Position numbers and translations under genes: made by a program. A stretch of 64,000 bases of DNA from a virus. This document shows, piece by piece, positions 23,701-62,315 of this stretch (positions are counted from its first letter, which is position 1; each line of letters begins with the position of its first letter). A model generated the notes under the pieces. The model saw only the letters and a program-made list of their open reading frames with translations. It searched no databases and was not told the origin of the DNA. The DNA lies in IMG/VR virus record IMGVR_UViG_3300030107_003448, positions 36,679 through 100,678 of that record; one strand, written 5' to 3'.

Positions 23701-25887
23701 TTTGGATATAGATTTGCTGTAAGACCTCCGTTCAATAGGCCACGTTGGGCATTAAGTGTAAGAGGAATAGATGAAGCAGGCGGTAGCGCCACTAGTCCAC
23801 ATTTATTAGCAGGTTATGGGCATGGTCCTTTTGTTGCTCAAGATAATTTAACAAGCGGGTGGAAAGAAAATGCCCATGCTAATTTAGGCACAACAGATGT
23901 AAATTGGAGTGCTACTACTACAGGTATTCTGGAGAGACAGACACAAGCCAGCGCTATGTTACAGAACGACCAATTAGGTAAACAAGTAAGATATAGTGAA
24001 GGTAGGCGTATTACTCGACCATTTGGTTGTCCTGTAAGAACAATACGTAATGCTTCTACTATGAGGAAGAAATTCCCGGGCGACAATAGAGGAAAAGATA
24101 TTGATGAATTAGCCGATGCTCATCGTTTCTATATGATAGATTGGTGGGGTAATACTCGTGGTGAAGATGTGCGTAGATTCCCTGCACGTGGATTTGGTAT
24201 ACGCCCTGCTTGGGACCCACAAGATGTATACACACACGCAGGTAATACTACTAATCCTCAACTCCATGAGACTACTGTTATGTTATATCCTGCTGGTCTT
24301 AGTGATTGGTCTAGTGTGGGTGGAGTTGTTGCGGCGACCATCAGTGCAGGTGGTAGTGGATATAGTGCAGCCACAGCAGCAACAACTGGAGGAAGTGGAA
24401 CAGGCTGCACTGTTACTTATACAATAAGTGGCTCTGCTGTTAATGGTATTACTGCTTTTGCTACAAGAGGAACTGGATATGTAGTAGGCGATGTATTAAC
24501 TATTTCTGGTGGTGGTGGTAATGCAACAATTACAATAACTACTTTAGATGATTATCCAAGTGAACAACAAGGTAATGCTAATTCTGGTAACCAAGTAGGG
24601 CTGTCTCCTTCTGATATGAAAGTAGATTGGTTTAATCCTTTATCTGCACATAGAGTAGGAGATAGAGGGGATGGTAGAGGAGTTAGATGGTCTACTGCAT
24701 TTAATGAAAATTTATTACAAGAAATTGATGTGCCTGTATTAACTACTGGTCTAGTAGTTTCACATAGCACAGCAGAGCCCCCATTTGGTACAGGATATTT
24801 ACGGCCTTCAAATGATATATTAGGGGCTAAAGAGTTGCCTCGTGGTATTAGTAGTAGATTAGGTATTGCTGAACATGGTTTATTAAAACCAGAGGCTAAT
24901 GTTAGTGAAAATGTAGAAACATTAACTGGCACATTTACTAGTGGTGGTGAAACTTTAGCAGACCCATTCTCTCGTGGTGCACCTCGTATTGGTCTTGATG
25001 CTGATACAGTCTCTGAATTAAGTGGAGGTCAAGAAATAGACCACATAGGTATATCTACACAAGCCTATAGTTTACACACTGATACAGAAGTAGGACAGAG
25101 ATTATCTATTAGAGGTGCTATTGATAGTGGAGATGAAAGTGTAACTTTAGATAACTTTGATTTAACATCTTTGTCTTTTGCTACAAATCCTACTAATAGT
25201 GTTGTAAGAGTTTCTAATGCGCACGCAATATGGGCTTTAGGTGGAACATATATTTTAGAAGCCAAGAGTTATGCTGGTACATTTAATGATGCTGAATGGG
25301 GAGAAGGAAGTGCATCTAGTTCTTCTAACCCATATCAAGATTCTAACCATGACCCTACTACTGGCACAGGAGTTCAAACAAATCGTGCAGATAAAACAAT
25401 TAGATTCTTAATGAGACCATTCCGTAGATTAGATAATAGGCATATAGAACTATTTAGACCAAAAGGAATGAACACAGGTCCACAAGTAAATAATGATGGT
25501 TATCGTGCTACAGCAGGTGGTAAATATGGATTGTTTAATTATGATATGCCTAATGCTCGTAGTGGCACAATCAATCCGACTAACCCTCCTTATCAACCAT
25601 CTTATACATTCAATACTAGTGGTGTAATTACTTCAACAGGACCAAAAATACCCGGTGCTGATGTATCAACTATGGGCTTAAGCACTACAGTAGGTCGTAT
25701 TATCATAAGTGAAAATACATTAGAACACTTTAGGTCTGATGCTCCTCGTAGAACAGCCGTTAAAGACGATGGTTCAAGTGCCACTAGAACAGACTATACA
25801 GTTCAACCACGACATAGTCAAACATTACATCCGAAAGGTGAATCGGGCACAGATAGTTTTAACACAGGAGACCACAGTGCGGAGTGA
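8785..25887 (+). CDS. Giant (5700 aa) virion adhesin/tail fibre-like protein with N-terminal LamG/concanavalin-A domain
   Basis: LamG motifs TLTIEAWVKP, HVVG…VALFING, FRGAIESVHLS and IAIWRFEE. It has many G/T/S-rich beta modules and sits in the tail module. Confidence 0.7.
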   Translation: MVVVSKAGHALVLNGISDGIIIPDSHFSHTGIQSERGDFSGPSIDNVALNTQSDTTGIGRLHTLTIEAWVKPDCGGVVLSKDGLFELKVGQVGEPGPAVLTAHMNNPHQNKTIIVASAIKNTGTPRWEGTVFPRHGVDVHGSYNSDASATIATGLNIGHRELLHVVGLISSNKVALFINGTLMAQELLPTGDFMLDFSSSDIFIGGKGGEFRGAIESVHLSRGFDAQILKPDPPIINNNTIAIWRFEEPAEVHNTVYQSGGETAAADGSTKTVSLSTADAQSLIATITGNAYDSTSPSLDLTASPYSSGNYKVMDLVSAPASPTTILVPHTPYNILFNPDGLNLSTKKPNQKPPERLRLLGINGSTGVISVESIHLDFSIAGARRGLLHSKTANVDDHFVLISGDLLIDGGTGQPYQPPHYGSQVIDRTGQMVIDEGNFQYHGLIYSSRMATTTTDSDNPYAVVWPSIDTKFQMGHTGRHTLSIQEGHHYLRQLPTPNNEIIHQSTDASADIAEIYFDASHKGLESVIPINSRLDIYRESLISPVSNIINSSWAFGLVDNGKAEGSGRELLAIGGVGAKTGIGQTIFDYTPFLLKGPIEAPSMSHDFTNYRKHHLRPITKSRIAILSVPSLNDASFVGAGNQIAPFVQIHYNAVDITGQSVGCKDSGVEIDNGGGYTAGTATSMQVSTVDIRTKFVVGDAVFTSNGDLLGVITAIPDGTHFTIGAGTNVAVADNDNLFSINPFLLIEKTVPSADTVLNSTGPVTVYDAILNDLADAAKDTQLYAPGGLITLDTSNSDGQLPDVELESLFQSDPEEGIHNEDELNESLTPQNYSLVHPSDVAKANPQLINAEHTTIAHDAVFHRLVINQQNIDLINQLTESANYFRRNSSITGSGAGGYDIGNTSAASHLNESFDIISARKIDGMESQSKQFLIHPSDRARFSQLTKLNTTNSRPEEPNIVSIQYLMTKTRATSISSQEGSSDRQVEMICTGLIGDAGAIGIDVLGSGAPDSHAIKEVMPGAPVVTVTLGGPGQGAVNTKPTYDPSPFTRLGWNTRKDCGAIITNIAATGGTVAWTVAPLNNASTDLASWGTYCFPRVGRIYLENGAHAAYNAKSGASFTMDGTASGLASSGKYIKPDGTPADGYAEWLVACGLTANSKCNFKVFVDGSFGEDTVCNDGSTINDRMFQTMDSVTHDYQLGTQYASTRSLVEIPIFPDLLFTNTERCINPGPDNSLKLHIDATYTAHNWAPSPVGRRCPSYSPRDRTAFGVSGHKISLQSSLKGAHITGDPYLNGGDLRLPVSNYSLFQNSTTTPTTLGGKNLSTRYFKAFLANGEWATYTTSHSGGYLILTNGPSTDVGKDMSDNFLETVEPGMSIFPGPSLINDNLMPIRDHPTVASAAYEGRSSYYYNRSNVQTQGGNIDYGLRQYVSAIELKAGPRENPHLPKTKNKRARSTVVSWTAGSHLLILDDASDFPLGGTTLLYLNGATHQFQYRVAYIDTSGNEQTAHYKAEAVTGNNIILSSGLYSGSWNPPVGTEIYVKDFHNITANKYPEVIEEIPLSNAWLNPYAAGGLREGDTVWMNMHYTNPHAVEGLFCKSHGVFDESKVHTMFNGGEGLFTTTPRSSIPMENFLIGNTCLETAKNLVQHINQTVTKNFETLGRKKTFTDNTCDTNHTSGLSDGTTTSVRHITHTANSNIVAGLLVSGTGIPDGAYITAINTATCFTISADTSATNTNTTLTFTTPTHAPVAFLDPYQATETFARVLLYDVSQDREFIAMQDLHMQVQTSPQTPKLGSPASYLVSGPAAFDGTPVSANYSTEIDVANGFPSQVKSHSPTAASEYIESAYTHSAHWNQYAPVGLSAGFEHTINSFSCLGDFGHARVKESACCPDTAYLTHAYRQSGAAETSETIYSTTFDTPMGTRVIPSFLCLKGIRNEALDLSQYADTKLQYLPQWTQMDFVRRLTVDLGEIGLREGVTDIEAAINEVVRLINQAGALKGRTHARRPASQYPGETDRLDIDNVGPNPDVSHSDSDASAPHLSADFSATGSTHDPAPFWENSISFASHDRGSHMGYVRAHVGRVVEDSDGNEGYTIVIHSTIPGASGRNFCIWLDNSKGQSAYKPQFLIGHGGRFRNFWCRPDEMTLENMHPAPMPINKDGRPFAPITTLKEILPPEESTDEYVNNLYLGKGVLSTAGASSDGTENANTVGVTGNHQNTVYDESYETQGTESVLVEGLRAGTPALARINFGGMVMAGIPGWSPKAGQWGCGRTGNTRYLAAYGQTTVGGFNYVKYNSSTNGHVPSDDYKDENIGNGNLYGIKLTDHLGRTHIIRFIYSQFEESFTNDLTELPPTIDQEICIWFDDRDVGQGGFTIGRHMLGEGDVCAKSALSVNDEFVGNKWGPYPSPFVGLGVTASTAWDAANTKLTVVLAAPYDTSSALGAHPDILGYMGFPDSGVLQYNGNSKSGVTLSYTSRTHNNENGPHVFYGVTGNGALAHNQAGNITSRINWNTLLTDEIIAAAVEFAINMDDPNSISVTKTRFDCTEMYAADGKKLKDWGLTKNSIRIRAHSKTSRVTPLNCLFEATTAKDWGIHASTILAEHGTAETSETRIPTGYLPATVLNLKTRYYGTNANTATPVVVDSANNVIDTTVWKDNLRGTRFIDTPGDLIIPRIDSPSVEIDGSTHSAGEVQTTNGDSFWHVLRPTSTGGFGERKRIWWNEKEWALVTGSVQSGPRHQFDWPTTAEQAISANWETELTDLGTNAALVYTHTNIEHANEFDGLRLTGNTGGEPLVYFRGARDSVDHEVPLYFGGGFSGVTLDINDGTQNDYSDFYTHPYANGPTGSTGLQNIGEKSTSYCLLDAHAMLAMFPGTPYLDDHKGQNNPPYFNQNSILSHDMAGGAMTHPDGNTRYGAVARGSRSVSKYVPVTVPSPIVLRFSHPHARYHPALFSEGGYQDSDTYSMYVVFGPGQSFPMNNAVSTEPQVGIFHALSGNMWSSTPPYSDWTGGGTPESTYLPNLLVCGGGDHISMAGSLDVYLPPSNNQQRGNLAGWNYEMNWEPAQGMPNLITEINSATSSIRYGFDQGANEGRYYGNHFKAPTTNSTSPPFSHPFDSPALNSVPASTSVIRTSGFKWHMDGGYHPGGHWLDNCVLKNTYQPIANAPIPNKFTSGSSPGDKGTPYPAAFRVGSLLTAAYMNSDSAQAASGDTTGNDVILIDATRCQNAEELATVISCAINEFPGKAGLKSLGGTFLPSFQNSHKQDKYGWVPLLGENASYTEGTSIPNGHVTITNPNGGGSTVMPPIPRYGWIRTVRGGNHGPIVGDYSAGATGTFAPYVAVDSTTTAGDLKFILGANGGGHMKFCDPISTTATPPYVTAATLNAELDHGVYVWSKTGNWIYNNGRPTGRMSKNADTSSAINANSQDHMCHVHFNGLTDAIDRTRPIGAIGWHGERYSYLNSLILDNGAPVAGTAVYSAGLGAWYSELGFSPYGSMTTCNSIASKVSRNDNQQLFPAQCPSGLSSRHLIAVTYESEMAIVAKAMQDGQVCGGDWLYKAQAVGTGTTSAVTPPNTTAGTRKWSPNIQNLSRYTAPATGGPNVEAQFIKDQIQPYQAGVITGLTITSGGSGYSAGTADLTGGSGSGASITYTVNSGAVNAITAIASAGTGYQIGDVLTVGGGGGNATVTVSAGTGYWSSEVTTTAHLLHPVISADGGASEGVLSTPCASPTGDLFWEESTVVGNRFHVDDNNYRVKCTENTDANFNAVEDDTDPWGYWKDKSAGRNFNVEHIVWKRMDGGNLTMPASNARGLGAVPWLWRGTPGYAGSYKTGETIYGNCRFSFETTNSAMFPIIQAQELSHPQLAEQHPFELRNILMIPNEDLQFESMEVIDDTGQTHTIEGGSPLGTIIRDFEKISDRGSEGLSPSLANSGLAPNMKIQLPHPDAIPGNIVVRSGFDRIQSYQNETIGSGGMMHPAQPEQGVKDMFAEPDSALGPRTWPTWENKGWEHISQDADDVSIEAGKTRLSFPDTHSQGWPNHTNDNPLETAYEQHDRTLYFHITKMGHTSTSREPTCISTSTGMVESQTITYSSHNASAGTLTASATINANIFKAETGTSDSRYFARVEDSTGQGAVFSFTNTSSANFTGVKFEPNFETFIAGKTGLTIKPSYYVPAGSTRFFAARRLRDHCEISGNSPDMRKLPWHTIINDAADAFSAIIVPETMMTPMPIPRMGHHYVTPTMSFMPGHFTHPFYENAFSLQFGCSNANVSPEEDKYTQSALDPDTGVHPVINNISTHNPLVWFSTPSSPYRPSDIHGGAFTLLTETKVAYDGYGIAASKGDAGTENATGRHILYLEAASSYSLKSHFPDPMEVGAYQIIIQPNVHKQQLQGFHNNHGTATKGPDEGGTKVVELTGQQVNLVVGISHDPGGTVNPDGSIALLLAEATMADTRGCEIFINEVMLDFSPDSGEQFTNIPPLGLYNPLGVNENTSPPFSRKSLPYRPGTFDRATPGYTITVPWWAILHRERPPAPGASANTTAGFRHLEWHKPDDYYQFCRATYGAIGAQITLAGYPSLYADTYAPHQNLRSLNPHCKVLSATLDSGSGIGGVGTIVVDNNETFPVYPYYGEILEYIDYLGVRQRATYATRDGHLGSNITNGPAIFKNVTALTLDFWPNIVSVPKMKDGIIKLSRPYDNFVTGDIFTKSTSSAITRVLPQTLHGTRDTNSLHMGDAYLCLWHPNLGRPYTFYSDNTSRSFQVYAAVDASVNKNPYNAPPEHFETIHYHDFLYSISKGPFGFHMGATDPEGDGTYAEMKGLLTGTITAGGSGHAATDVLTLTAGTGFLGTSATVTVSTVSTGAVTAFAITTAGAGYSVGDVLSQTATTGSGSSFQLTITAIGSFDSTKVPQGDATRHYTGFWPGGSRGGPGASRLDGYGYIKAGWGDNDFGMDCKPYALDGGVAGGIARSTHATLLAAGDNIHGRQFCFGYRFAVRPPFNRPRWALSVRGIDEAGGSATSPHLLAGYGHGPFVAQDNLTSGWKENAHANLGTTDVNWSATTTGILERQTQASAMLQNDQLGKQVRYSEGRRITRPFGCPVRTIRNASTMRKKFPGDNRGKDIDELADAHRFYMIDWWGNTRGEDVRRFPARGFGIRPAWDPQDVYTHAGNTTNPQLHETTVMLYPAGLSDWSSVGGVVAATISAGGSGYSAATAATTGGSGTGCTVTYTISGSAVNGITAFATRGTGYVVGDVLTISGGGGNATITITTLDDYPSEQQGNANSGNQVGLSPSDMKVDWFNPLSAHRVGDRGDGRGVRWSTAFNENLLQEIDVPVLTTGLVVSHSTAEPPFGTGYLRPSNDILGAKELPRGISSRLGIAEHGLLKPEANVSENVETLTGTFTSGGETLADPFSRGAPRIGLDADTVSELSGGQEIDHIGISTQAYSLHTDTEVGQRLSIRGAIDSGDESVTLDNFDLTSLSFATNPTNSVVRVSNAHAIWALGGTYILEAKSYAGTFNDAEWGEGSASSSSNPYQDSNHDPTTGTGVQTNRADKTIRFLMRPFRRLDNRHIELFRPKGMNTGPQVNNDGYRATAGGKYGLFNYDMPNARSGTINPTNPPYQPSYTFNTSGVITSTGPKIPGADVSTMGLSTTVGRIIISENTLEHFRSDAPRRTAVKDDGSSATRTDYTVQPRHSQTLHPKGESGTDSFNTGDHSAE

Positions 25888-28895: not shown

Positions 28896-29153
28896 GTGAT
28901 AATAATGGGTAGATTATTAGACAAGTTAAAACATACATGCCCTAAATGTAGGGTTATTGGATTTCCTACTCGTATTATGGGAACTTATGCTAACCATAGT
29001 AGAAGTAAAGTATACTTATGGGAATGCGATTCTTGTGACCATATCTGGAAGGACACACAAAAACACCCTAAACCTGTAGAAAACAAAAAGGAACATGCTG
29101 TGCTTAGATTAGAGCACTGGAAAACAGTAGCAGAAAAAGAACTAGACTTGTAA
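28896..29153 (+). CDS. Zinc-ribbon protein (likely start ATG 28905)
   Basis: CPKC…CDSC. Confidence 0.6.
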   Translation: MIIMGRLLDKLKHTCPKCRVIGFPTRIMGTYANHSRSKVYLWECDSCDHIWKDTQKHPKPVENKKEHAVLRLEHWKTVAEKELDL

Positions 29154-30062
29154 ATCTAATTTTAGTGATTTATTGATTTGTTTATACCTATTTCTAATTG
29201 TAACTTCTGTTACCCCAGAAACTTCTGATATTTCTTTTTGGGTCCTACGTTGATTATTGAGCACGCCTGCGATATACAGCGTTGCTGCACCTACGCTTGG
29301 TGGGCTAACTCCAATATCCATTTCTTTCTCCTCTAGTTCTTCACATAACCTAAGAGCAATTAATTCTGTAGATGCACTAACACCTAAATCACTAGCAAAT
29401 CTACCTAAGTAATCTACCCCACGTAAATGGGGCAATCTGATGCCTAATTTACGTTTGATAACACGCTCTACTCTACCTATTTCTTTTCTGCCACATCTAC
29501 TAACAGAAGTAATTTCATCTAATGTCCTAGGAACACCACATTGACGACAGGCGATATACAGAGCACTCGCTATTACTAAATCAATAGACCTTCCCCTAGT
29601 GATTCTTTCCTCTACTGATTTTTTATAAATGACAGCGCCTGCTTCTCTTACTATTTTAGGTAAAGACATCCTACTTGCCATTCGGTCTAGTTCTGCTAAG
29701 GCTACTGCTAGGTTACGTTCTAATGAATTACTCACACGTGCTCGTTTTTGCCATTTACGCATACGATACATTTGTGAACGAGAATGACTAGGTAGGTTTT
29801 TGCCACTATAGTCTTTATTCTGCCAACCAATATCTGTAGACAGCCCTTTGTCATGTAATAAAACCGACATAGGTGCACCTGTGCGCTTCTTCTTTTCTGC
29901 ATCTTCCATGCTGTAAATGCTCCATTCCCCTCTAGGGTCTATCATAGCATCTTGTAATACTAAACCGCAGTCTTGGCATACTATTTCTCCTCTGTCTATA
30001 TCCTTATCCAGATTGCGACTATCACATTCTGGACACTTTACAGTGTCGGAGGTTTCTACCAT
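29142..30062 (-). CDS. tfb: Transcription initiation factor IIB
   Basis: Zn ribbon CPEC…CQDCG, B-reader region, HDKGLST, two cyclin repeats and C-terminal VTEVTIRNRYK. Confidence 0.95.
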   Translation of the reverse strand: MVETSDTVKCPECDSRNLDKDIDRGEIVCQDCGLVLQDAMIDPRGEWSIYSMEDAEKKKRTGAPMSVLLHDKGLSTDIGWQNKDYSGKNLPSHSRSQMYRMRKWQKRARVSNSLERNLAVALAELDRMASRMSLPKIVREAGAVIYKKSVEERITRGRSIDLVIASALYIACRQCGVPRTLDEITSVSRCGRKEIGRVERVIKRKLGIRLPHLRGVDYLGRFASDLGVSASTELIALRLCEELEEKEMDIGVSPPSVGAATLYIAGVLNNQRRTQKEISEVSGVTEVTIRNRYKQINKSLKLDLQV

Positions 30063-33644: not shown

Positions 33645-33667
33645 TTATTGTTGTCGGTTCTTAAAGG
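33645..33667 (-). promoter_or_regulatory. Conserved viral promoter-like element, copy 1
   Basis: CCTTTAAGAACCGACAACAATAA upstream of the MCM-like gene. Confidence 0.75.
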
Positions 33668-44308: not shown

Positions 44309-44331
44309 TTATTTTTGTTGGTTCTTAAAGG
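44309..44331 (-). promoter_or_regulatory. Conserved viral promoter-like element, copy 3 (inside the RFC 3' end)
   Basis: CCTTTAAGAACCAACAAAAATAA also encodes FKNQQK*. Confidence 0.7.
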
Positions 44332-45271
44332 AATTTGATTTTTGGGCTAATTTCGCCACAAAATATTCAAAGAAAGAACGGTCATCAGCAGGCCACTCAT
44401 TGGCCATGCTCATGAACTCGCCCCATGTTAACATGAAGTTGAAGTAATCTTCATCCTCAAGTAAATCTCGGATGCGCCTACGGAGACCATGCAAGATAGA
44501 AAATCTATCGTCACCTCTCTCCAACGCTCCATTTAATCTAACAGATACTAATGATAAGTCACCCGCCATCAGCGCCATGCTTGCATCACTTAACTCACTA
44601 GACTCACTACGCACCGCACCTTCGATAGATGCCTCTGTGTATTCGGGTAGGCTTTCAAGAATAGATATAGCCTTACGTAGGTCTCCATTACATACTGCTA
44701 CCAATTGCTCAAGTTTTTCTTTCTTATCACATACTTTCATCCATTCCATTGGTGCTTCTTCTTTCAATATTTCATGGAGGAATAACACACCATCCTCTGG
44801 AGTCACTGGCCCAAACTTATAATGTCTACATCTTGATTTGATAGCAGGTTTTAATTTCTCTGGGTGATTTGCAGTGAGTATGAATAATGTGCTCTTGTTA
44901 GTGTTCTCAATGATTTGCCTCAAAGCATCTTGTGCGGCAGGGGTAAGTCCATCTGCCTCATCTAATAGTATAACTTTACGACCACCTGTAATAGAGCGAG
45001 TGCGTGCTACTTGTTTTAATTCATCACGAATGAAACCAATACCTCTGTCATCACTAGCGTTAGTGACAATAAGATTACCACTTAGGTGTTCACCATGCAT
45101 CATCTTAGCGATGGCTATAGCGGCTGTTGTTTTACCTGTGCCCGGCCCGCCAGAAAATAATAATGCAGGGGGGTAGCCTTTTTCTTCCCATCCCTTAGCG
45201 TCACGTTTCAAATCTGAAACTCCTGCCATGTCTGCTATGGTTTCTGGTCTATACTTCTCTGTCCAATTCAT
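44309..45271 (-). CDS. rfcS: Replication factor C (clamp loader) small subunit
   Basis: WTEKYRP, GGPGTGKT, NASDDRG, LDEAD, SRC and GDLRKAI. Confidence 0.93.
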   Translation of the reverse strand: MNWTEKYRPETIADMAGVSDLKRDAKGWEEKGYPPALLFSGGPGTGKTTAAIAIAKMMHGEHLSGNLIVTNASDDRGIGFIRDELKQVARTRSITGGRKVILLDEADGLTPAAQDALRQIIENTNKSTLFILTANHPEKLKPAIKSRCRHYKFGPVTPEDGVLFLHEILKEEAPMEWMKVCDKKEKLEQLVAVCNGDLRKAISILESLPEYTEASIEGAVRSESSELSDASMALMAGDLSLVSVRLNGALERGDDRFSILHGLRRRIRDLLEDEDYFNFMLTWGEFMSMANEWPADDRSFFEYFVAKLAQKSNSFKNQQK

Positions 45272-45453
45272 TCTATCACCTCAACATAGTCACGACTTTT
45301 AAGACTATAACCACACACTTCACATTCAATATATACTCTAAACACTATATCTCCATTAACCACTATTGGGTCAACTTCGGAAGACCATACATGTCCTCCA
45401 TGATAACATTCATGTTCTTCATTTTTCATTCCTTCCATGTCATCATACTTCAT
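45268..45453 (-). CDS. Small zinc-finger protein
   Basis: C…H…CEVCG. Confidence 0.55.
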   Translation of the reverse strand: MKYDDMEGMKNEEHECYHGGHVWSSEVDPIVVNGDIVFRVYIECEVCGYSLKSRDYVEVIE

Positions 45454-45566
45454 GCTGTCACCTCATCTAATATAGTTCCACACTTAGGACAATTAATTTC
45501 ATACACTTTTATTACTTCATATAACCCATTAGAGTTAATGTAATCTTCACAACATTTGTAACTCAT
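45450..45566 (-). CDS. 38-aa CPxCG microprotein (not in ORF track)
   Basis: MSYKCCEDY…NCPKCGTILDEVTA*, flanked by two GAGGTGACAGCATGA junctions. Confidence 0.65.
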   Translation of the reverse strand: MSYKCCEDYINSNGLYEVIKVYEINCPKCGTILDEVTA

Positions 45567-45570
45567 GCTG

Positions 45571-45786
45571 TCACCTCACCTTGTTGACCCTCTGGCATCT
45601 TTCCCATAGGTAATCCATAGCCCATTCAATATCTTCTACTGTGCAAATGAGAGGCGCACCGAATGTATCTGTGCCCCCATTGACTTCTTTAAAGTAGTCG
45701 TAACCGTTACCTTCAAGTTGAGTGTATTGCATAATACAGATATTCAATGCCTGTATCTTTCCTTTCGATTTAGGGAATCGTTTCAT
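45571..45786 (-). CDS. Hypothetical protein
   Basis: GGTGA RBS, in the operon. Confidence 0.5.
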   Translation of the reverse strand: MKRFPKSKGKIQALNICIMQYTQLEGNGYDYFKEVNGGTDTFGAPLICTVEDIEWAMDYLWERCQRVNKVR

Positions 45787-45887
45787 GCTCTCACCTTTAA
45801 GGGGTTTTCGCTAAGTAGGGGGGGAGGGGGGGTAGAAAAATTTCCCGTGCGAGGCATATTTATTATTGTGTTCAATTTCGTTTTCAT
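45783..45887 (-). CDS. Possible 34-aa polyproline leader peptide
   Basis: MKTKLNTIINMPRTGNFSTPPPPLLSENPLKVRA*. Its ATG is 29 nt after the TATA and its TGA overlaps the next ATG. Confidence 0.35.
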   Translation of the reverse strand: MKTKLNTIINMPRTGNFSTPPPPLLSENPLKVRA

Positions 45888-45895
45888 CAATAGTT

Positions 45896-45918
45896 TTATT
45901 GTTGTCGGTTCTTAAAGG
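45896..45918 (-). promoter_or_regulatory. Conserved viral promoter-like element, copy 4
   Basis: CCTTTAAGAACCGACAACAATAA. Its TAA is the stop of 45912..46304. Confidence 0.75.
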
Positions 45919-46304
45919 ATTGAATCAACATAGGTGACATATTCACGGAATGCGGGTATATCATCGTGAGGTGGAGGGTTCATCAAAATATACTCGGCTG
46001 CCTTTATTGGTTGTGTAGATGGGAAATAATCAGACCAAGGTTTGAGCATGTCCAGTAATTTAAGCAGGCTCTCCTCATCAGTCACTTGGTTACCCTCGGT
46101 TGTCTGTATATCTCGCCTTAGCAGGAAATCTCGTAGGAGGGATTTTGTGGCTGTAGATTTACGTAAACCTATATCAGCACTCACAAATAACCTATGCCCA
46201 CAAACGTTCCTTACACTGTTTTTCATACTTACTTTCAAATTAAAACATTGAATGAGCATACCTAAAGCAACACGGTCAGATTTGCTTAATTCATTCAAGA
46301 GCAT
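45912..46304 (-). CDS. Degenerate single-domain LAGLIDADG-fold protein
   Basis: By-eye similarity to I-CreI-type proteins (GHRLFVSADI, LLKLLDMLKPW, FREYVTYVDSI). There is no acidic residue at the end of the first helix. Confidence 0.45.
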   Translation of the reverse strand: MLLNELSKSDRVALGMLIQCFNLKVSMKNSVRNVCGHRLFVSADIGLRKSTATKSLLRDFLLRRDIQTTEGNQVTDEESLLKLLDMLKPWSDYFPSTQPIKAAEYILMNPPPHDDIPAFREYVTYVDSIL

Positions 46305-47716
46305 GCCTCCACTATATCTGTAAATTGACTAGTATCTCCTCTACCTAATTCTCCATTAATACCTGTAAATTCAAAGTTCAAAAACTTGTATGTTTCGGCC
46401 TCTATATTTGTGCAAGTGCCCTCTACTATAATGCCTAATTTCTCTATATCTTCCCAATCTTCTTCTGGGCTCACTCCTCTACGATTGAGTATCAAAATAA
46501 CATTTGTGCTCGCCTCTGCGTCAAGGGTAAGAGTGTGAATCGGGAAAGAGTCAAACCCGTCTAAAACAGCCAATCTTAAACAAATGAATCCTTCTTTGTC
46601 TTTTTTCATTTCTGTAATTAATAGGCGGAATTGGAATGCGTGGTGCACAAGAATCCACCCGTTATTATCTCCGGGTTTGTATGGGCCTCCATCGACAATA
46701 CGGGCTAGTTCATTATCGTCTAACAAAGACATAATTTGTGTAGCAGATTCATTACCTGTTAATTCCATTGGCTCTATCACTTTCATTCTTTTACCACTAC
46801 TAGCCCAAAAACGTAGTATGTGAATCCTGTCTTTGTAAGGGAGGTGTATTTTAGATTCATTGTAATATAAGCAATCAGTCACACACCATAATTTATTATT
46901 CATAGATTCTACTTCTACAATCCAATCTCCTCTAGGTTTGTAACCATCCCACATTGTTTTGAGACCAATTACCTTAGACCCGTCTCTATTTCTTAAGGTG
47001 GCTTTTCTGTTATGGATATATAAAAATCTACGTGGTCCTCTCACTATATCTACAAATGAGTCTTCGGGCATCGTAGTTTTTCCCCACTGTTGATAATGCC
47101 CCCCTTTCATAGCACAATCTGGTCTAGGTGTTAGCATGGGTAATGTTTCTGGTGATTTTAATAGTCTGATAACTACCTCAAGAAAAGGGATAGTAGAATA
47201 AGCGGCATGTATATCATTTGGTTTAAATTTCATATGAGGCACATGTGACCATGCTAGAGCATATAAAAACGAACCTTGGCTCATAGAAATGGGCCTACTT
47301 GTTAGAATAGTAGACCAAAATAATAGTGCTTCTAGTTCATCCATTTGATTGCATAATGTAAGAATATCATGATTGTATAAATCCTTAGCGATAGCCAAGC
47401 ATTGAGTAATGGTTATGCCAGTAGATGTTATTCCTTCAGATTCGGATGCTAATATTTCTGGTAAAGTTTCATGTCCTAAAGATTGTGAAATAGTATGAGG
47501 GTAAACATTTAGTTCCTCAGATAATTTAAGCCGTAAATTTTTGCTACTAATATAAGGGCCACAGAAAAGGAAATCACATAATTCTATAATTTCTTCGTGG
47601 TTTTTAGATTCCTCTATCACACCTTTGACAAAATCTTTACGATTCTCAAAATGGGGTTTTTTTATCCATAATTCAGCCGCTAGTTCAGCCACTTTTCTTA
47701 ATCGCATTTCAACCAT
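46295..47716 (-). CDS. ATP-dependent DNA ligase homolog, probably catalytically inactive
   Basis: Ligase motif order is kept (RNRDG, IVEVE, TDCLYYN, LPYKDRIHIL, PYKPG…W). Motif I reads DIVRGPR and motif V reads WILVH. Confidence 0.65.
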   Translation of the reverse strand: MVEMRLRKVAELAAELWIKKPHFENRKDFVKGVIEESKNHEEIIELCDFLFCGPYISSKNLRLKLSEELNVYPHTISQSLGHETLPEILASESEGITSTGITITQCLAIAKDLYNHDILTLCNQMDELEALLFWSTILTSRPISMSQGSFLYALAWSHVPHMKFKPNDIHAAYSTIPFLEVVIRLLKSPETLPMLTPRPDCAMKGGHYQQWGKTTMPEDSFVDIVRGPRRFLYIHNRKATLRNRDGSKVIGLKTMWDGYKPRGDWIVEVESMNNKLWCVTDCLYYNESKIHLPYKDRIHILRFWASSGKRMKVIEPMELTGNESATQIMSLLDDNELARIVDGGPYKPGDNNGWILVHHAFQFRLLITEMKKDKEGFICLRLAVLDGFDSFPIHTLTLDAEASTNVILILNRRGVSPEEDWEDIEKLGIIVEGTCTNIEAETYKFLNFEFTGINGELGRGDTSQFTDIVEACS

Positions 47717-48018
47717 CTCGGCTTAGGTTGTGTGCTTACTCCATAATTGTCTTTCAATTTTTTAGCGAATTGTCTAATTGTGACTTTCGCCCCATACTTA
47801 TTTGCTGTAAAATAAAGACAATCTACCATTGTCCCTTGTAAAGTGCGTGGAGCCTTGCCTGCATATTTATCATACAGAGACAAGGCGTGCTCTATAATAT
47901 CGGGAGACAAACCTAACGCTTGTCCCATTTTTATTCCTATATGATGTGCATTATCTTTAAAGCCACGGTAAGCATTGGCTTTAACTCTCATTCTTTCGGA
48001 ATGTCCTTTAACTCTCAT
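47698..48018 (-). CDS. Single-cyclin-repeat TFB-like protein
   Basis: MGQALGLSPDIIEHALSLY…MVDCLYFTANKYGAKVTIRQFAK parallels TFB cyclin repeats. Confidence 0.6.
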   Translation of the reverse strand: MRVKGHSERMRVKANAYRGFKDNAHHIGIKMGQALGLSPDIIEHALSLYDKYAGKAPRTLQGTMVDCLYFTANKYGAKVTIRQFAKKLKDNYGVSTQPKPRWLKCD

Positions 48019-48746
48019 TCTTCCTCATCGCCTTCATTTGTAGGTGAATAAAGACAGTATGTTCCTCTCATGTGAGGAGGCACTGGTTCATCGTTTAATG
48101 TTGAACCCAACGGAACACAAACAGTAGGGGCTAGATTGCTATCTACCATGTCTACAACTTGTTCACGAGTTAACACTGTATAGATTCCTTCCTCAGTAAC
48201 CCAACGGAAAAACAAATTATCTCCACCTAGTAAACCGTAGTCTTTCGGGTCAATTCTAATTACAGTATCACATTCACCACAGGGGAACTCCACAAACCAT
48301 CTTTCCATTTCTATACCTTGTGCATTTTCATCAAGGGCCGCCTGCATTCCTACAGTAACCCACCTAGAATCTTCTAATGGCATGTCGACTAATTTACAAT
48401 CACAACCTTCTGCGAGACATTCCCATTGTGCTGCTATTGCTTGTTGTCGTAAAAGTTGTTGATATTGTTCTTCTTGTGGATTAAGAGAAGGTAAAACCAT
48501 CTCTGCGTCTTCTTCTGTAATAACCCAATCTGTCCCATCTAAAGTTAGTAAAACCCTTCTATGCATTTCTCCAGAATCTGGATGCTGTGTAATTTTACGA
48601 AGGGCTAAGGAAGTCTCTCCTGTCCTTTCATATTCTAACCCAGAACCACCCGGGGCCCAGATACCCCCTACATTAATACTAGTCAAATGACTAATAGTCC
48701 ATTCTATATCCTGTTCTGTAGGAACCCATATTTCTTCTTCGCTCAT
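48015..48746 (-). CDS. Acidic hypothetical protein with Cys pairs
   Basis: CLAEGCDC…CGEC. Confidence 0.5.
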   Translation of the reverse strand: MSEEEIWVPTEQDIEWTISHLTSINVGGIWAPGGSGLEYERTGETSLALRKITQHPDSGEMHRRVLLTLDGTDWVITEEDAEMVLPSLNPQEEQYQQLLRQQAIAAQWECLAEGCDCKLVDMPLEDSRWVTVGMQAALDENAQGIEMERWFVEFPCGECDTVIRIDPKDYGLLGGDNLFFRWVTEEGIYTVLTREQVVDMVDSNLAPTVCVPLGSTLNDEPVPPHMRGTYCLYSPTNEGDEEE

Positions 48747-51214
48747 TTTCTCACCTCATATTCTCGGTCACTAGTTCCACCCCATCCACGTTGATGTGCT
48801 TTAACCCAAACCACTTTGCCCTGTTCTTTATATCTCTCGGATTTTAGCACTCTGAAATGTCTTCTTACTAAGTGGAACTTCCTCCCGTTGCCCTCTCCCA
48901 AGGCAATAGAGTTTACATATCTTTTGACTTCGCCCGTCAATCTAACGACTTGTGTTTTACCCCAAATAGGCTTGCCTTTAAGTTTCCTATTTCGTTTTAA
49001 TTTATCATGGAACTTTGATTTTGGTTTATCTACAAAACTAACATTGGGTAATTGGATAAAATATAACAAACCTATAATAAAATCTACTATCTCTCTCAAA
49101 TATTTAGTAGGCCCAGATTTTCTCGGTCTAGGAGGTAACATATTATCCCATGTAGATACTCCTATTTTGTTTGTTGTGACATATCGATATTTGCCATTTG
49201 TAATAACTGCTGATATTATCCAATGCCTTTTATTCGGTTGAGGGGGGTCTACCTTATCGTGACCTTCTAAAACATCTGTTTTCACATGAACTGCTTTTGA
49301 CCCATCGTCTTCTATATCTATTATCACACCTGCGTTTTGGTCTGCTAATCTTTTCATTCCTGTGTAATTATCGACACCAGTGTAAGAGCCTTCTTTAGCA
49401 TTATATTCACCAGCAAAAAGGACTTTTTTAGACCATTGTTCGTTAGTATACTCATCGAATTCTTGCCCTATACAGGCTGTGACCAATTTGTCACCTATAC
49501 TTTCTGTGTTTAGATTTGTTAAAAGCCCTTCTTCACCTGTTAGTAAATTACAATATATTTGGTCTCCATGTCCCTTTTCTACATATTCAGCATATTGTTC
49601 GTCATCTAATTCATGAATTAAAATACCTTCACATAACTCACCAGAAGATAATGGTAAATTGACATCTAAAAACATAGATTGATATGGTAAATACAAAAAT
49701 TCAGCATTAATTTTACTAGGTAAACCTGTGTTCAAAATAAGTTGTTTAGTGTCTGGGTCTATTACAAAATTCATAGCCTCTTTGGTGCGTTTGAAATAAG
49801 GACAATTAACCCTTCCTTGTAAACGATTTACAAAAGAGGCAGAGGCATGTGTGAATCTTTGTGTAGTTTCAAAAGAAATAGGGCTTTCTAATTGTATGAA
49901 ATCCTGCCTAAAAGGACCAAACTTACTAGTCATATAGTCTACTGACGCATATTGGTCAAATATACGATATAACAATGAATCGAATAAGAAATCTCTTGGT
50001 GGTGTATTAGTTTCTTTATGTAATACTTTGTCCTCATTCATGTCAAATGTAGGCACTGAATCATCTGTTAATTGTATTCTATAATTACTTGCGCTCATGT
50101 CCGATTCTATTTCCCATTTCTTAGCATAATTTATCAAATCTGTGATATAAGGAAGATATAAAGATATAGGAAGCATCCATAGTTTCCCACACAACCAAAG
50201 TAAATTATGACTCATTTCACGATTGATGTGTTGTTTATATATGTCTTCGTGGTTTCCCATTGTGTCTATAATGGTCCTTAAACCCCCAGTAAACTTATCC
50301 CTTGTAAAACAACGGAAAGCATAATTGAAATCATTATCTTCCATGAAGCCTACTTTTTCAAAAGGATTAAGAGTTTCCCACCATTCTCCAAATATACTCC
50401 TAAGAAAACTAGGATGAAAACAATCTGGTGAATTAAATTCAATATCAATAAACTTACCATTTATTGTAACGTCATCAATACTCACACGACTAAATTCATT
50501 AGAAAGGTAGAAATAAACAACAAATAAATGAAGATAGTCTATGTTATTAAATAAGTTAGTATCTATTAAAGCGTGCGCAATATTATATGGTTTGGGTTTA
50601 CTTCCAAATTTTAAACCTAGTGAATCCAATATTTTCTTATTGAGTCGTTTACCTCCGTGTATGAGGTTACTATATTCTGTTTGACCCAACATCAATATGT
50701 TTAATATCTCACTAGTTGTAAATATAGCCAAACCCTTAGTCGCAAATTTTGTCTGTTGGTGTTTATTTGAGTTAACTAAACAACACAAATCATGATACAA
50801 TTCTATATTAGGTGGCACATTTTTATTAAACCTTTTTAGTGCCATTCTCATTGTATCTATACTATCGCCTGTAGGTATTTTACCAAAACTAATCATGAAT
50901 GCTGTGTATAATAACGCACATTCCGCCCTATTTATTTCATTTATCATGAAATTACGTAATTTTGTTTTTTTACCACTTATATTATCCAGAAAGTTATCAA
51001 ATTCTTGTGGGCTTACAGAAATATCAAACTCCATTTCTATATCATCATAGTTATCTTTTGTTTGGAGTTCTATCATAGTTTGGAATAATTTATCTACAGC
51101 AAAGCGTTCTCTTTGCCTGTAAACTTTCTTCTTCTTCTGTTTTTTCTTATACTGATGTGCAATCGCCTTGCGTCTAGCCAATTCCCTTTTGGGGAGTTTG
51201 TTAGGTTTACCCAT
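48743..51214 (-). CDS. Large hypothetical viral protein with C-terminal HxVRxHxR…WVxxHxRG motif
   Basis: HLVRRHFR…WVKAHQRG and a basic N-terminus. Confidence 0.55.
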   Translation of the reverse strand: MGKPNKLPKRELARRKAIAHQYKKKQKKKKVYRQRERFAVDKLFQTMIELQTKDNYDDIEMEFDISVSPQEFDNFLDNISGKKTKLRNFMINEINRAECALLYTAFMISFGKIPTGDSIDTMRMALKRFNKNVPPNIELYHDLCCLVNSNKHQQTKFATKGLAIFTTSEILNILMLGQTEYSNLIHGGKRLNKKILDSLGLKFGSKPKPYNIAHALIDTNLFNNIDYLHLFVVYFYLSNEFSRVSIDDVTINGKFIDIEFNSPDCFHPSFLRSIFGEWWETLNPFEKVGFMEDNDFNYAFRCFTRDKFTGGLRTIIDTMGNHEDIYKQHINREMSHNLLWLCGKLWMLPISLYLPYITDLINYAKKWEIESDMSASNYRIQLTDDSVPTFDMNEDKVLHKETNTPPRDFLFDSLLYRIFDQYASVDYMTSKFGPFRQDFIQLESPISFETTQRFTHASASFVNRLQGRVNCPYFKRTKEAMNFVIDPDTKQLILNTGLPSKINAEFLYLPYQSMFLDVNLPLSSGELCEGILIHELDDEQYAEYVEKGHGDQIYCNLLTGEEGLLTNLNTESIGDKLVTACIGQEFDEYTNEQWSKKVLFAGEYNAKEGSYTGVDNYTGMKRLADQNAGVIIDIEDDGSKAVHVKTDVLEGHDKVDPPQPNKRHWIISAVITNGKYRYVTTNKIGVSTWDNMLPPRPRKSGPTKYLREIVDFIIGLLYFIQLPNVSFVDKPKSKFHDKLKRNRKLKGKPIWGKTQVVRLTGEVKRYVNSIALGEGNGRKFHLVRRHFRVLKSERYKEQGKVVWVKAHQRGWGGTSDREYEVRK

Positions 51215-53222: not shown

Positions 53223-53245
53223 TTATTGTTGTTGGTTCTTAAAGG
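53223..53245 (-). promoter_or_regulatory. Conserved viral promoter-like element, copy 5 (inside the upstream gene end)
   Basis: CCTTTAAGAACCAACAACAATAA also encodes FKNQQQ*. Confidence 0.75.
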
Positions 53246-56439: not shown

Positions 56440-57291
56440 TCAATTTTCAGAATATTTTAAAGCACGACTTACTAAGTCTGCTTTCTTACCTGCAACAGGT
56501 AATCCTCTTTCCACCATCCAATCAACTAACTCTGCTTTCTTCATAGATTCTAATTGCTGTGTTAACAGATGGTTGCCTGCCTCTACTGCTGATAATACTT
56601 CACCAGTAGTAATGCGCCCATCTTGCACAGCCTTCCTTAATTGTTCTTGAACCGATACAGGTTCTTCCTCGACAAGATTGAATGTGTTGTTTATGAACTC
56701 CTCTATCCTTGTCAACCGTTCATCTGCTACTGCATCTGTTAGTTTATTGGTATCTGCTACTGCATCTGTTAGTTTATTCCATTCCTCTTTAGTAACGACT
56801 TTGTAATCACACTCATCATAGTCATCTGCATCGGTTGCTCTCACTAAGATGTTCAAAGCCATGTCATCCATGACATCACATCCGTCTTCCACTAAGTCCT
56901 TTACTTTATTTTCAACAAATCCATCTAAATCTAACACGTCATCTGGGTCTACATATTCACCTACAAGGACGGTATCTAAAAGTGAGCCTGCATCTATGTG
57001 GTCAGTCCAGTCTACATCTCTTAATGTTCTCTTTACTTCGTAGTTAATGTCTATCCCTTGGTCTTCCCAATCTATATCTTCTATCAAATCATCTACATCT
57101 ATGTAATTATTTAGTATAACATCCTCCAAAATTGAGTCTGCGTCTATGTGTCTTATGTCTTCAACGACTCCTGCTATGGCTCTACCTAACTCCGCATTCT
57201 TATTTGTTAACGTAATTACACGTTCTTCTAGTTCTTTCATCTTAAGCAGCATCTTAAGCATGCTCGTCTCTGTCTGTGTATCATCCTTCAT
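56440..57291 (-). CDS. Highly acidic protein with N-terminal coiled coil and C-terminal SAP domain
   Basis: LESMKKAELVDWMVERGLPVAGKKADLVSRA and D/E-rich repeats. Confidence 0.65.
   Translation of the reverse strand: MKDDTQTETSMLKMLLKMKELEERVITLTNKNAELGRAIAGVVEDIRHIDADSILEDVILNNYIDVDDLIEDIDWEDQGIDINYEVKRTLRDVDWTDHIDAGSLLDTVLVGEYVDPDDVLDLDGFVENKVKDLVEDGCDVMDDMALNILVRATDADDYDECDYKVVTKEEWNKLTDAVADTNKLTDAVADERLTRIEEFINNTFNLVEEEPVSVQEQLRKAVQDGRITTGEVLSAVEAGNHLLTQQLESMKKAELVDWMVERGLPVAGKKADLVSRALKYSEN
56722..56778. repeat. Perfect 27-bp direct repeat with 30-bp period
   Basis: atctgctactgcatctgttagtttatt at 56722 and 56752, encoding NKLTDAVAD twice. Confidence 0.9.
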
Positions 57292-61456: not shown

Positions 61457-61681
61457 TTAGTCCTCCTTGAATATGATAACACAGGGTATAGGTAAACCTT
61501 TCTTTTTAGATGCATTAGATTGTAGTAATATACCCCTGTGTTTGTTTGTGCCATCTAATCCCTCATCTAATACGTGTAACATATCTTGCACTGTTTTACC
61601 ATCTTCGGGAAAGAACTGAACACATTGTCTACCTTTCACTTCATGTATCTTAATAGTGCCAACATCTGTGAAGTCAATCAT
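61457..61681 (-). CDS. Hypothetical protein (likely start ATG 61681)
   Basis: Starts within a GAGGTGACAGCATGA junction. Confidence 0.5.
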   Translation of the reverse strand: MIDFTDVGTIKIHEVKGRQCVQFFPEDGKTVQDMLHVLDEGLDGTNKHRGILLQSNASKKKGLPIPCVIIFKED

Positions 61682-62193
61682 GCTGTCACCTCCACACCTT
61701 TCCACCAACTAGGAGCAGGTGTTCCCTTCTCCCACTTGGCGAACTGCTTGGAATGGTAGTAGGCTCGGTATGCCTTGACCACATCATCGTCACGATACTC
61801 CTCGGGCATAGCCAGTGCGAATGGTGTGAGATATCTTGAATCTGTAAATGGAATTAACCCACATATACAGTGCATATCTATGATAGGGTCGTGACAAGCA
61901 TGACGCTTACCAAACCTCTTTGTATATTCTTCACACAAAGCAACTGCGTGTCGAACAAGCCATAGAAAATTGGAACGACTGTTACCTGCCCATACTGTGC
62001 AAGGGTGATGTTTATGACCACCCTTGTATGGTGTTCCCGCTTTAGTCAACGGCATCTGTTCATCAGTCGCACCGTGGTAACGCAAAGCACTAGCCATCAT
62101 CTGTGCTGCTTCTACACACATCTTGGGGATGTGTTTGTCACAGTGCATACGTGCTGCTGCTACTGGGTCTAAGTCTAATACGAATATGTTCAT
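61678..62193 (-). CDS. Pyrimidine-dimer DNA glycosylase (endonuclease V)-like family protein
   Basis: MNIFVLD…HCDKHIPKM…AQM, HHPCTVW and AYRAYY. Confidence 0.65.
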   Translation of the reverse strand: MNIFVLDLDPVAAARMHCDKHIPKMCVEAAQMMASALRYHGATDEQMPLTKAGTPYKGGHKHHPCTVWAGNSRSNFLWLVRHAVALCEEYTKRFGKRHACHDPIIDMHCICGLIPFTDSRYLTPFALAMPEEYRDDDVVKAYRAYYHSKQFAKWEKGTPAPSWWKGVEVTA

Positions 62194-62315
62194 TCTGTCA
62201 CCTCATCACAAGTGCATGTAGATTCTTCATAATCCCACCAAGTATTTTCACATTCATTACAACCCAGTCTGATGTAAAGTATTTCCCAACTATTTAGTTG
62301 AAGTATGTGTTTCAT
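62190..62315 (-). CDS. 41-aa Cys-rich microprotein (not in ORF track)
   Basis: MKHILQ…CNEC…CTCDEVTE*, with ATGA overlaps at both ends. Confidence 0.55.
   Translation of the reverse strand: MKHILQLNSWEILYIRLGCNECENTWWDYEESTCTCDEVTE

Follow-up and report, generated by a model that had tools for sequence, protein, structure and literature searches.

INTRODUCTION

In the surface ocean, few archaeal viruses are more abundant than the magroviruses. These are tailed viruses, and their hosts are marine group II (MG-II; Poseidoniales) archaea (PMC5434244; ICTV profile, PMC10768690). The magrovirus papers describe a nearly complete replisome, in which they list an "ATP-dependent DNA ligase" and treat it as functional; inactivation is not mentioned in them (PMC5434244; PMC10768690). 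In group A magroviruses, the replicative ligase has been described as belonging to the "thermostable ligase" type (Philosof et al. 2017, PMC5434244). Here we analyze three overlapping genes in the final 64 kb of an IMG/VR virus record of 100.7 kb (IMGVR_UViG_3300030107_003448, positions 36,679 to 100,678). This 64,000-nucleotide stretch is referred to below as the window, and its first letter is position 1. The source is a Magrovirales-type virus of marine Poseidoniales archaea, and the three genes lie in its replication arm, on the minus strand. We named these open reading frames (ORFs) g106, g473, and g130 after the lengths of their products in amino acids (aa), and their neighbors likewise (g243, g823, and so on). 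The trio consists of pseudo-enzyme derivatives of a Lig1-type ligase (g473) and of a LAGLIDADG endonuclease (g130), plus a probable stand-alone repeat of the transcription factor TFB (g106).

Proteins resembling each member have been described. In DNA ligases, motif I has the form K-x-D-G-x-R-x-x-x-H, and its lysine is the nucleophile that becomes adenylated. The m3G-cap-binding domain of Snurportin-1 is a derivative of the nucleotidyltransferase fold of ligases and capping enzymes; it is non-catalytic and serves in binding only. WhiA is a bacterial transcription factor derived from LAGLIDADG domains that lack the nuclease residues. In phage T4, a DNA-bound factor loaded by replication, the gp45 clamp acting with gp33 and gp55, activates late transcription.

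RESULTS AND DISCUSSION

g473 is a ligase homologue without the catalytic residues

On its own, g473 (46295..47716, minus strand) gave no match above threshold in Pfam or PHROG, or in the Protein Data Bank (PDB) by phmmer. HMMER, run exhaustively over 1.8 billion cluster representatives, yielded 32 relatives, mostly of 430 to 490 aa. The best PDB matches of a 25-sequence profile were archaeal ATP-dependent ligases (E values of 0.035 to 0.2), with an alignment that was collinear through all three ligase domains. An AlphaFold2 (AF2) model built on the 25-sequence alignment had a pLDDT of 88.4. With this model, the top 50 Foldseek matches were three-domain DNA ligases throughout (best E value, 1.7e-16), and VIA-align gave a Z score of 19.0 over 444 residues. 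By both methods, g473 has the three-domain fold composed of a DNA-binding domain (DBD), a nucleotidyltransferase (NTase) domain, and an OB-fold domain.

This is the architecture of the Lig1-type ligases, among them 3RR5 and 6WBO from Thermococcus, 2CFM from P. furiosus (Pfu), 3GDE from A. fulgidus, and 1X9N, human LIG1. They aligned with g473 over 432 to 465 residues with Z scores of 17 to 19. However, g473 is only 10 to 16% identical to them, is about 90 residues shorter, and lacks a Pfam match. None of the Pfam ligase families PF04675, PF01068, and PF04679 exceeded its curated threshold for g473, and just 1 of the 25 relatives produced a ligase match, at an E value of 0.1. The nearest proteins in BFVD, a library of viral structures, were annotated ligases of at most 15% identity, including one from halovirus HGTV-1. 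A tblastn search with g473 against GenBank phage and archaeal-virus records found no match, and a six-frame Pfam search found no ligase domain above threshold elsewhere in the genome. "Thermostable ligase," the type named for the group A gene, is also the molecule name of 2CFM; g473 and the group A gene are compared here by description only.

The N-terminal helical DBD equivalent comprises residues 1 to 195 (47132..47716) and aligns by profile with residues 1 to 204 of the Pfu ligase. It contains two conserved patches, LASES and EAxLFW, that are invariant columns of the family. The NTase, or adenylation, domain equivalent follows at residues 196 to 362 (46631..47131); its core (residues 196 to 361) superimposed on the NTase domain of human Lig3a with 2.6 Å over 166 residues and a Z score of 16.5. 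The OB-fold equivalent, assigned by structural alignment, occupies residues 363 to 473 (46298..46630). In the VIA comparisons, residues 196 to 467 aligned with the ligase domain of LigD, and the whole chain aligned with Lig1 and Lig4.

The motif I equivalent of g473 reads I-V-R-G-P-R (residues 224 to 229; 47030..47047), as placed from alignment columns of 25 and 32 members. The motif I lysine is missing from all 32 family representatives, and likewise from the whole 25-sequence set; its position is taken by a hydrophobic or other non-lysine residue. The family pattern is [I/V/M/L/Y..]-[V/I/L]-x-G-x-R-x-[F/Y]-L-H, so the Gly, Arg, and His of the ligase motif are retained. Motif IIIa is also retained, with FDILY of the A. 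fulgidus enzyme aligned to TDCLY of g473, as is the Y-x-E-R that follows it in the Lig1-type ligases. The equivalents of motif IV (L-A-R-I-V) and motif V (G-W-I-L-V-H-H) lie at 46640..46708, according to a hidden Markov model (HMM) alignment to residues 340 to 424 of 3GDE. Where the ligases have (E)GVMIK in motif IV, g473 has lost the Glu and the Lys and has an invariant Arg339 instead. Motif V has changed from W-L-K-V-K to W-I-L-V-H, with both lysines gone. The first of these two lysines is lost in every family member, and a K or R at the second position occurs only in distant members. The three motifs of the related locus L002 read DIVRGPR, DMARIV, and WILIH.

Because the lysines of motif I, motif IV, and the first motif V position are absent family-wide, g473 should be unable to form lysyl-AMP. 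Moreover, no lysine is invariant or nearly so across the whole family (25-sequence columns), so the absence of ligase chemistry does not depend on the exact alignment register. With no Pfam match of its own and with the catalytic residues missing throughout the family, g473 cannot be filed as a ligase. The alignments indicate that the catalytic loss is ancestral to the family.

Could g473 nevertheless be an enzyme? It might use a non-canonical nucleophile, carry out another nucleotidyl transfer, or read capped or adenylylated ends. It has kept motif III (E-V-E) along with motif IIIa, the motif I Gly, Arg, and His, and the invariant Arg339, and its distant members keep a K or R in place of the second motif V lysine. 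Catalytic residues that have "migrated" are known from other pseudoenzymes (review, PMC10211241). However, the family offers no conserved lysine that could have taken over the role of the nucleophile. To our knowledge, all covalent nucleotidyltransferases of the ligase superfamily use the motif I lysine. We consider it very unlikely that g473 is still an enzyme.

If the "ligase" of the replicative block cannot ligate in this lineage, then the virus must borrow a host ligase, the protein must have another conserved job, and the "DNA ligase" annotations of this family are wrong. The analysis corrects what is probably a wrong annotation in a virus group of high abundance, and the module that it defines can be tested. 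A literature search found no description of non-catalytic ligase homologues in archaeal viruses. The cap-binding domain of Snurportin-1 is a conceptual precedent for g473, but the two have no specific relationship, and Snurportin-1 has neither the DBD nor the Lig1-type organization.

A second domain with the ligase/capping-enzyme fold is encoded upstream of the window, in a 1930-aa frame of the structural arm (L015:1501-2991; G000:C1:29716-31206). The complete relative G001 has a counterpart in a 1864-aa frame (L014:901-2400). The best Pfam match of this domain was the Snurportin-1 m3G-cap-binding family (PF21974; 26 to 27 bits), compared with only 15 to 21 bits for DNA_ligase_A_M (15 bits in this virus), and a phmmer search of the region against the PDB found no match. 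Magroviruses have a "structural-module ligase," with which this domain is probably identical, and it is possibly inactive as well.

g130 consists of one LAGLIDADG domain and lacks the catalytic acid

Alone, g130 (45912..46304, minus strand) had no Pfam, PHROG, or PDB sequence match above threshold, and it was not matched in genome scans with PF14528 and PF00961. Orthologues were collected from seven loci, in each case from the position that follows the ligase-like gene; they are 30 to 38% identical between lineages. The best PDB matches of the resulting profile were LAGLIDADG enzymes, led by the I-LtrI family (E values of 0.006 to 0.015, to both halves) and including I-PnoMI and others. The AF2 model had a pLDDT of 89.9 and a pTM of 0.82. 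A VIA search of 48,161 chains, which was independent of Foldseek, gave Z scores of 10.6 to the archaeal intron enzyme I-Vdi141I and 10.4 to I-TnaI. Its top 12 matches were LAGLIDADG endonucleases only, each covering at least 108 of the 130 residues and nine covering at least 118. Unrelated folds scored no higher than a Z of 4.4. The top 50 Foldseek matches were LAGLIDADG proteins throughout. By both searches, g130 has the α-β-β-α-β-β-α fold of these proteins.

In size and in its single domain, g130 resembles the homodimeric LAGLIDADG endonucleases I-Vdi141I (3E54), I-TnaI (5GKK), I-CreI (1BP7), and I-CvuI (5A72), with which it aligned over 118 to 123 of its 130 residues at Z scores of 9 to 10.6. 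It also keeps their N-terminal packing helix, including a small residue (L-G-M-L-I). However, Cys20 (codon 46245..46247), with which this LAGLIDADG helix ends, aligns in the HMM comparison with E29 of I-LtrI, a catalytic residue that binds metal. The orthologues have Ser, His, Asn, Asn, and Arg there. Therefore, where the endonucleases have a catalytic Asp or Glu, g130 and its orthologues have C, S, H, N, or R, and the acidic metal-binding residue of the helix is absent from all of them. In the AF2 model, the β3-β4 hairpin is shortened to a few residues. The endonucleases also differ in their setting. g130 is not part of an intron or intein, nor a sporadic insertion; it is non-mobile and, in 6 of the 7 loci, occupies a fixed site directly after the ligase-like gene, under purifying selection.

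WhiA provides a precedent for a regulatory dead LAGLIDADG protein, and two WhiA structures match g130 (8DY9_I, Z score of 7.2; 3HYI, Z score of 5.3). However, WhiA has two LAGLIDADG domains and a C-terminal DNA-binding helix-turn-helix (HTH), whereas g130 has one domain and no HTH. A full-length Lig1-type ligase that has persisted without its lysine through sequence divergence of tens of percent, and is always paired with a de-activated LAGLIDADG domain, would illustrate cleanly how pseudoenzymes are recruited into DNA metabolism.

A weak match to LAGLIDADG_3 (16.7 bits; E value, 7e-4) was seen upstream of the window, in a 465-aa frame of the structural arm (L016; G000:C1:21765-21986). It is consistent with the report of a LAGLIDADG gene in the structural modules of magroviruses. 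A ligase-like and a LAGLIDADG-like gene are thus combined in both genome arms.

g106 is a probable stand-alone TFIIB-type repeat

The first member of the trio, g106 (47698..48018, minus strand), had no Pfam, PHROG, or PDB sequence match above threshold by itself. We found five close homologues, 61 to 85% identical, in independent metagenomes. Pfam TFIIB (PF00382) reached only sub-threshold scores, in 3 of 5 members (best E value, 0.012). A profile of nine sequences matched Pyrococcus TFB (1AIS_B) with an E value of 4.9e-05 and human TFIIB cores with E values of 2 to 5e-03, in each case over one repeat. The core of g106 (residues 25 to 86; 47761..47946) corresponds to helices 1 to 4 of a TFB/TFIIB cyclin repeat, as judged by HMM alignment to residues 110 to 174 of 1AIS_B. 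The ESM Atlas holds a model of the exact protein with a pTM of 0.69. The structural neighbors listed for it include six archaeal TFB clusters, with TM scores of 0.60 to 0.67 over 82 to 95 of the 106 residues; these clusters consist of 240- to 316-aa proteins that are aligned in part. Two further listed neighbors are viral clusters of hypothetical proteins of about 100 aa. We rate this fold assignment slightly below those of g473 and g130.

Like archaeal TFB and TFIIB (1AIS_B, 1D3U_B, and 1VOL), of which it resembles a single cyclin repeat, g106 is basic (isoelectric point [pI], 9.97; net charge, +12). Unlike them, it has one repeat, with no room for a second, and it lacks the linker and the B-reader. 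It also lacks a Zn ribbon, having only Cys67 and Cys105 and no match to PF08271, and by eye the C-terminal region of the recognition helix is truncated. No significant similarity was found between g106 and the full-length TFB of the virus. We know of very few viral modulators of archaeal transcription, and g106 is a candidate for such a modulator.

Gene order and selection

An earlier note on this DNA, made from the sequence, had read the three genes as a coupled trio of domesticated scaffolds: a mini-TFB, an inactive ligase, and an inactive LAGLIDADG protein. The ORF map agrees exactly with the gene positions in that note. The structure searches (Foldseek, VIA, and the Atlas) returned the folds that it had proposed, and none of the homologues retains the catalytic residues that it regarded as lost. 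The idea of domesticated scaffolds is supported, in that the folds are kept and the catalytic residues or effector modules are gone in genes maintained by selection and synteny, as described below.

Related loci were found by a metagenome scan, and we compared the neighborhood with eight of them by tblastn; their g473 sequences are 29 to 93% identical to that of the window. A search of viral contigs with a five-sequence alignment had found nothing. The eight loci have the conserved order g243-[g106]-g473-g130-(small ORFs)-RFC-g441-g331, and the RFC clamp loader is the conserved downstream neighbor of the trio. Both g473 and a g130 orthologue were present in all seven loci that cover their junction. 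In six of these the two genes are adjacent and overlap by 4 to 10 nt; in the seventh, L008, an unrelated 190-aa ORF (L008:802-1374) lies between them. In L005 and L007, the LAGLIDADG-like gene directly overlaps RFC. Extra ORFs of 96 to 107 aa occur just after the pair in L003 and in L004/L009, and the boundaries of the pair seem to tolerate insertion. Pfam had no match for the variable small ORFs near the pair in L003, L004, and L008.

The g106 slot is filled in 3 of 4 lineages. ORFs of 115 to 123 aa occupy it in L004/L006 and in L005/L007/L010, and 14 positions are invariant in the alignment. However, G001, a complete relative of 108.6 kb, has nothing in this slot; its 244-aa gene abuts the ligase-like gene, and no g106 homologue was found anywhere in the genome. 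This corrects the earlier picture of the trio on one point: the gene order holds in relatives, but the 106-aa gene is missing from one complete genome.

Selection was measured as dN/dS, the ratio of nonsynonymous to synonymous substitution rates, in two independent pairs, the window with L003 and L005 with L007, respectively. The values were 0.044 and 0.058 for g473, 0.082 and 0.095 for g130, and 0.074 and 0.10 for g106. All of them are well below 1, the bound named in the earlier note, and they are lower than that of RFC (0.26 for the window-L003 pair, the only pair measured for that gene). The trio is under strong purifying selection.

These values bear on the possibility that the genes are decaying remnants, namely a ligase that was broken recently, a homing endonuclease that is also broken, and a fragment of TFB. 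Only the missing catalytic residues speak for decay. The frames are intact in all relatives, and the losses are common to lineages that are less than 30% identical. Pseudogene decay is ruled out by the dN/dS values, and recent loss of the catalytic residues is ruled out by the family-wide alignment columns. We therefore give the idea of decaying remnants next to no credence.

Translational coupling extends beyond the trio

The overlap is 19 nt between g106 and g473 and 10 nt between g473 and g130. The start of g106 and the stop of g243 share an ATGA, and g243 is joined to g823 in the same way. Therefore, the trio is the distal end of a longer coupled chain. As for the claim that the trio is a unit, the three genes are indeed coupled, but they are not set apart from the genes upstream. 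g243 (48015..48746, minus strand) is an acidic protein (pI, 4.1) with a CxC...CxxC cysteine cluster and ATGA overlaps at both ends. It is kept in every relative, with 40 to 82% identity, and is linked to the module as tightly as the members of the trio are. It could not be assigned to a fold or family; the structural Atlas search was uninformative, and the model was poor. g823 (48743..51214, minus strand), a large basic protein, is the coupled operon member upstream of it.

The three proteins could therefore be independent products that share an operon and form no joint complex. For example, g106 could be a decoy for TFB or TBP, g473 could be a decoy that occupies nicks or blocks the host ligase or PCNA, and g130 could be a stand-alone regulator. 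Overlaps just as tight reach g243 and g823, so the coupling is not specific to the trio. The variable presence of g106 and the ORF inserted in L008 fit this explanation as well, and no fused form was found among the 32 g473 family representatives, of all lengths. A fusion search likewise found no longer protein containing the g130 module, which is weak evidence. However, g473 and g130 occur together in all seven loci, with overlapping reading frames in six of them, in lineages that are about 30% identical. This linkage exceeds the expectation for unrelated neighbors, given that small ORFs are gained and lost in this region. We consider full independence of the three proteins somewhat unlikely.

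A proposed role at the viral replisome

We consider it somewhat probable that g473 and g130 form a non-catalytic, DNA-structure-binding accessory of the viral replisome, to which g106 adds an extra contact. The ring architecture of the ligases is preserved as a whole, and g473 is therefore predicted still to bind duplex or nicked DNA; most likely it would do so without sealing. g130 would most likely serve as a non-cleaving dimerizing or adaptor subunit. Because the two are always encoded together, usually with an overlapping stop and start, they are predicted to act together, and they would do so beside RFC, the clamp, and PolB. Their tasks may include marking, recognizing, holding, or protecting nicks or ends, and a hand-off that involves the clamp and its loader. 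As an accessory that was lost in one lineage, g106 would add a contact that binds DNA or TBP. A role linked to replication is favored by the position of the pair, which has RFC and PolB as neighbors and in one lineage shares a transcript with RFC. Because the mini-TFB is dispensable in one complete genome, the three proteins are unlikely to form an obligate complex.

Several observations weigh against such a replisome accessory. g473 is mildly acidic (pI, 5.6), and its OB domain has a pI of 4.35. Its motif I has been assigned at the residue level from secondary structure and the pattern of the sequence. Only one β-hairpin is complete in the model of g130, and the DNA-binding saddle may have been lost, as in WhiA. 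The ORF between the pair in L008 and the empty g106 slot in G001 count on the same side. A canonical PCNA-interacting protein (PIP) box is absent from the scanned proteins of the neighborhood, including the trio. Finally, we infer, rather than observe, that the members of the trio bind DNA and one another.

The alternative suggested in the earlier note was that the three proteins assemble into a single complex, which would either tie transcription to nicks or replication or shut down transcription in the host. In this scenario, the pseudo-ligase would sense nicks, the LAGLIDADG protein would supply sequence specificity, and the TFB repeat would contact TBP or RNA polymerase (RNAP), in a manner comparable to T4 gp45, gp33, and gp55. 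The three scaffolds are confirmed and conserved, and their genes are translationally coupled. The virus has its own full TFB and a promoter-like element whose seven copies are confined to this arm. g106 is basic like TFB, and WhiA, the 8DY9_I structure of which matches g130, shows that a dead LAGLIDADG protein can be a transcription factor. However, g106 is missing from the complete relative that keeps g473 and g130, and the genes lie in the replication block, with the pair co-transcribed with RFC in one lineage. In addition, the recognition-helix region of the HTH in g106 is, by eye, truncated and rich in proline. g106 is also not similar to the viral TFB, and the virus has no TBP gene. We regard a transcription switch or host shut-off complex made of all three proteins as unlikely.

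A more specific form of this idea is that the pseudo-ligase and the dead LAGLIDADG protein act as a virus-specific sensor of nicks or specific sites on replicating viral DNA and recruit TBP and RNAP, or the viral TFB, through g106. We think this quite unlikely. If it did hold, with recruitment to the virus's own promoters, the system might be an archaeal counterpart of the replication-coupled late transcription of T4, a parallel that we rate just as low. The counterpart would consist entirely of de-activated enzymes and would be non-homologous, since the trio and gp45, gp33, and gp55 have the idea alone in common. A replisome accessory formed by g473 and g130 remains our preferred reading. The proteins of the trio are small and well predicted, and their expression should be easy; therefore, these questions are testable even though the host is uncultured.

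Promoter-like elements and repeats around the trio

The 20-nt promoter-like element CCTTTAAGAACCRACAACAA occurs in seven copies in the window, all on the minus strand, compared with 0.01 expected by chance. The copies start at 33648, 38481, 44312, 45899, 53226, 57322, and 60849 (span, 33648-60868) and are confined to the replication arm. The earlier note had placed the stop codon of the last gene of the trio inside copy 4 (45899..45918), and this is correct; the TAA of g130 (45912-45914) lies within the TTTAAG of the element. The RFC stop codon likewise falls within a TTTAAG, and several copies overlap the stop of the preceding gene. Copy 5 (53226..53245) is the nearest copy upstream of the trio and precedes a DUF932 gene. 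The transcription unit with the trio at its end therefore probably starts there. Because copy 5 precedes the DUF932 gene, this unit is likely to be g545-g120-g823-g243-g106-g473-g130.

The element has variants that are specific to lineages, namely, CCTTTAAGAACCATCAGCAA in L002 and ...GACGACAA in L004/L009. In L002, the variant is at the same place with the same stop codon arrangement. An extra small ORF precedes the element in L003, L004, and L009, and the element is absent at this place from L005 and L007.

A C-rich tract, a run of C's with one or two T or A residues, lies on the minus strand at 45815-45835. It is about 65 to 85 nt downstream of copy 4, in the gap of about 125 nt between the g130 stop and a 71-aa gene. 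In L002, the element is likewise followed by a similar tract, at about 7845-7865. The tract could be a conserved leader or regulatory feature. A 19-nt repeat, TCATGCTGTCACCTCATCT on the plus strand, is present in four copies in the window (45450-45468, 45563-45581, 61678-61696, and 62190-62208). These copies extend across the start codon and the ribosome-binding region of four small genes on the minus strand, among which are g61 and g71, just downstream of the trio.

Genome setting

The minus-strand arm around the trio encodes a thermosome subunit, PolB, XPF/ERCC4, a PD-(D/E)XK nuclease, an SNF2 helicase, and a pyrimidine-dimer glycosylase, as identified by Pfam and PHROG matches. The RFC small-subunit-like clamp loader is encoded at 44309..45271 on the minus strand (phrog_168, E value of 5e-48; Pfam AAA and DNA_pol3_delta2). 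The full-length TFB of the virus lies at 29142..30062, also on the minus strand, and has a Zn ribbon (PF08271, 46 bits) and two TFIIB repeats (PF00382, 122 bits). A TBP gene was not found in the virus genome. The gene set of this arm is the one described for magroviruses (PMC5434244). Magroviruses share with this virus the thermosome, SNF2, TFB, RFC, and PolB genes and the same genomic block, and the combination of thermosome and SNF2 has been reported for magrovirus group A (PMC5434244).

Two further features of the window were observed. The structural arm contains a single ORF of 5700 aa on the plus strand (8785-25887). Inside the gene for a SAP-domain protein (56440-57291) are two exact copies of a 27-nt sequence, spaced 30 nt apart with a 3-nt spacer (56722-56778).

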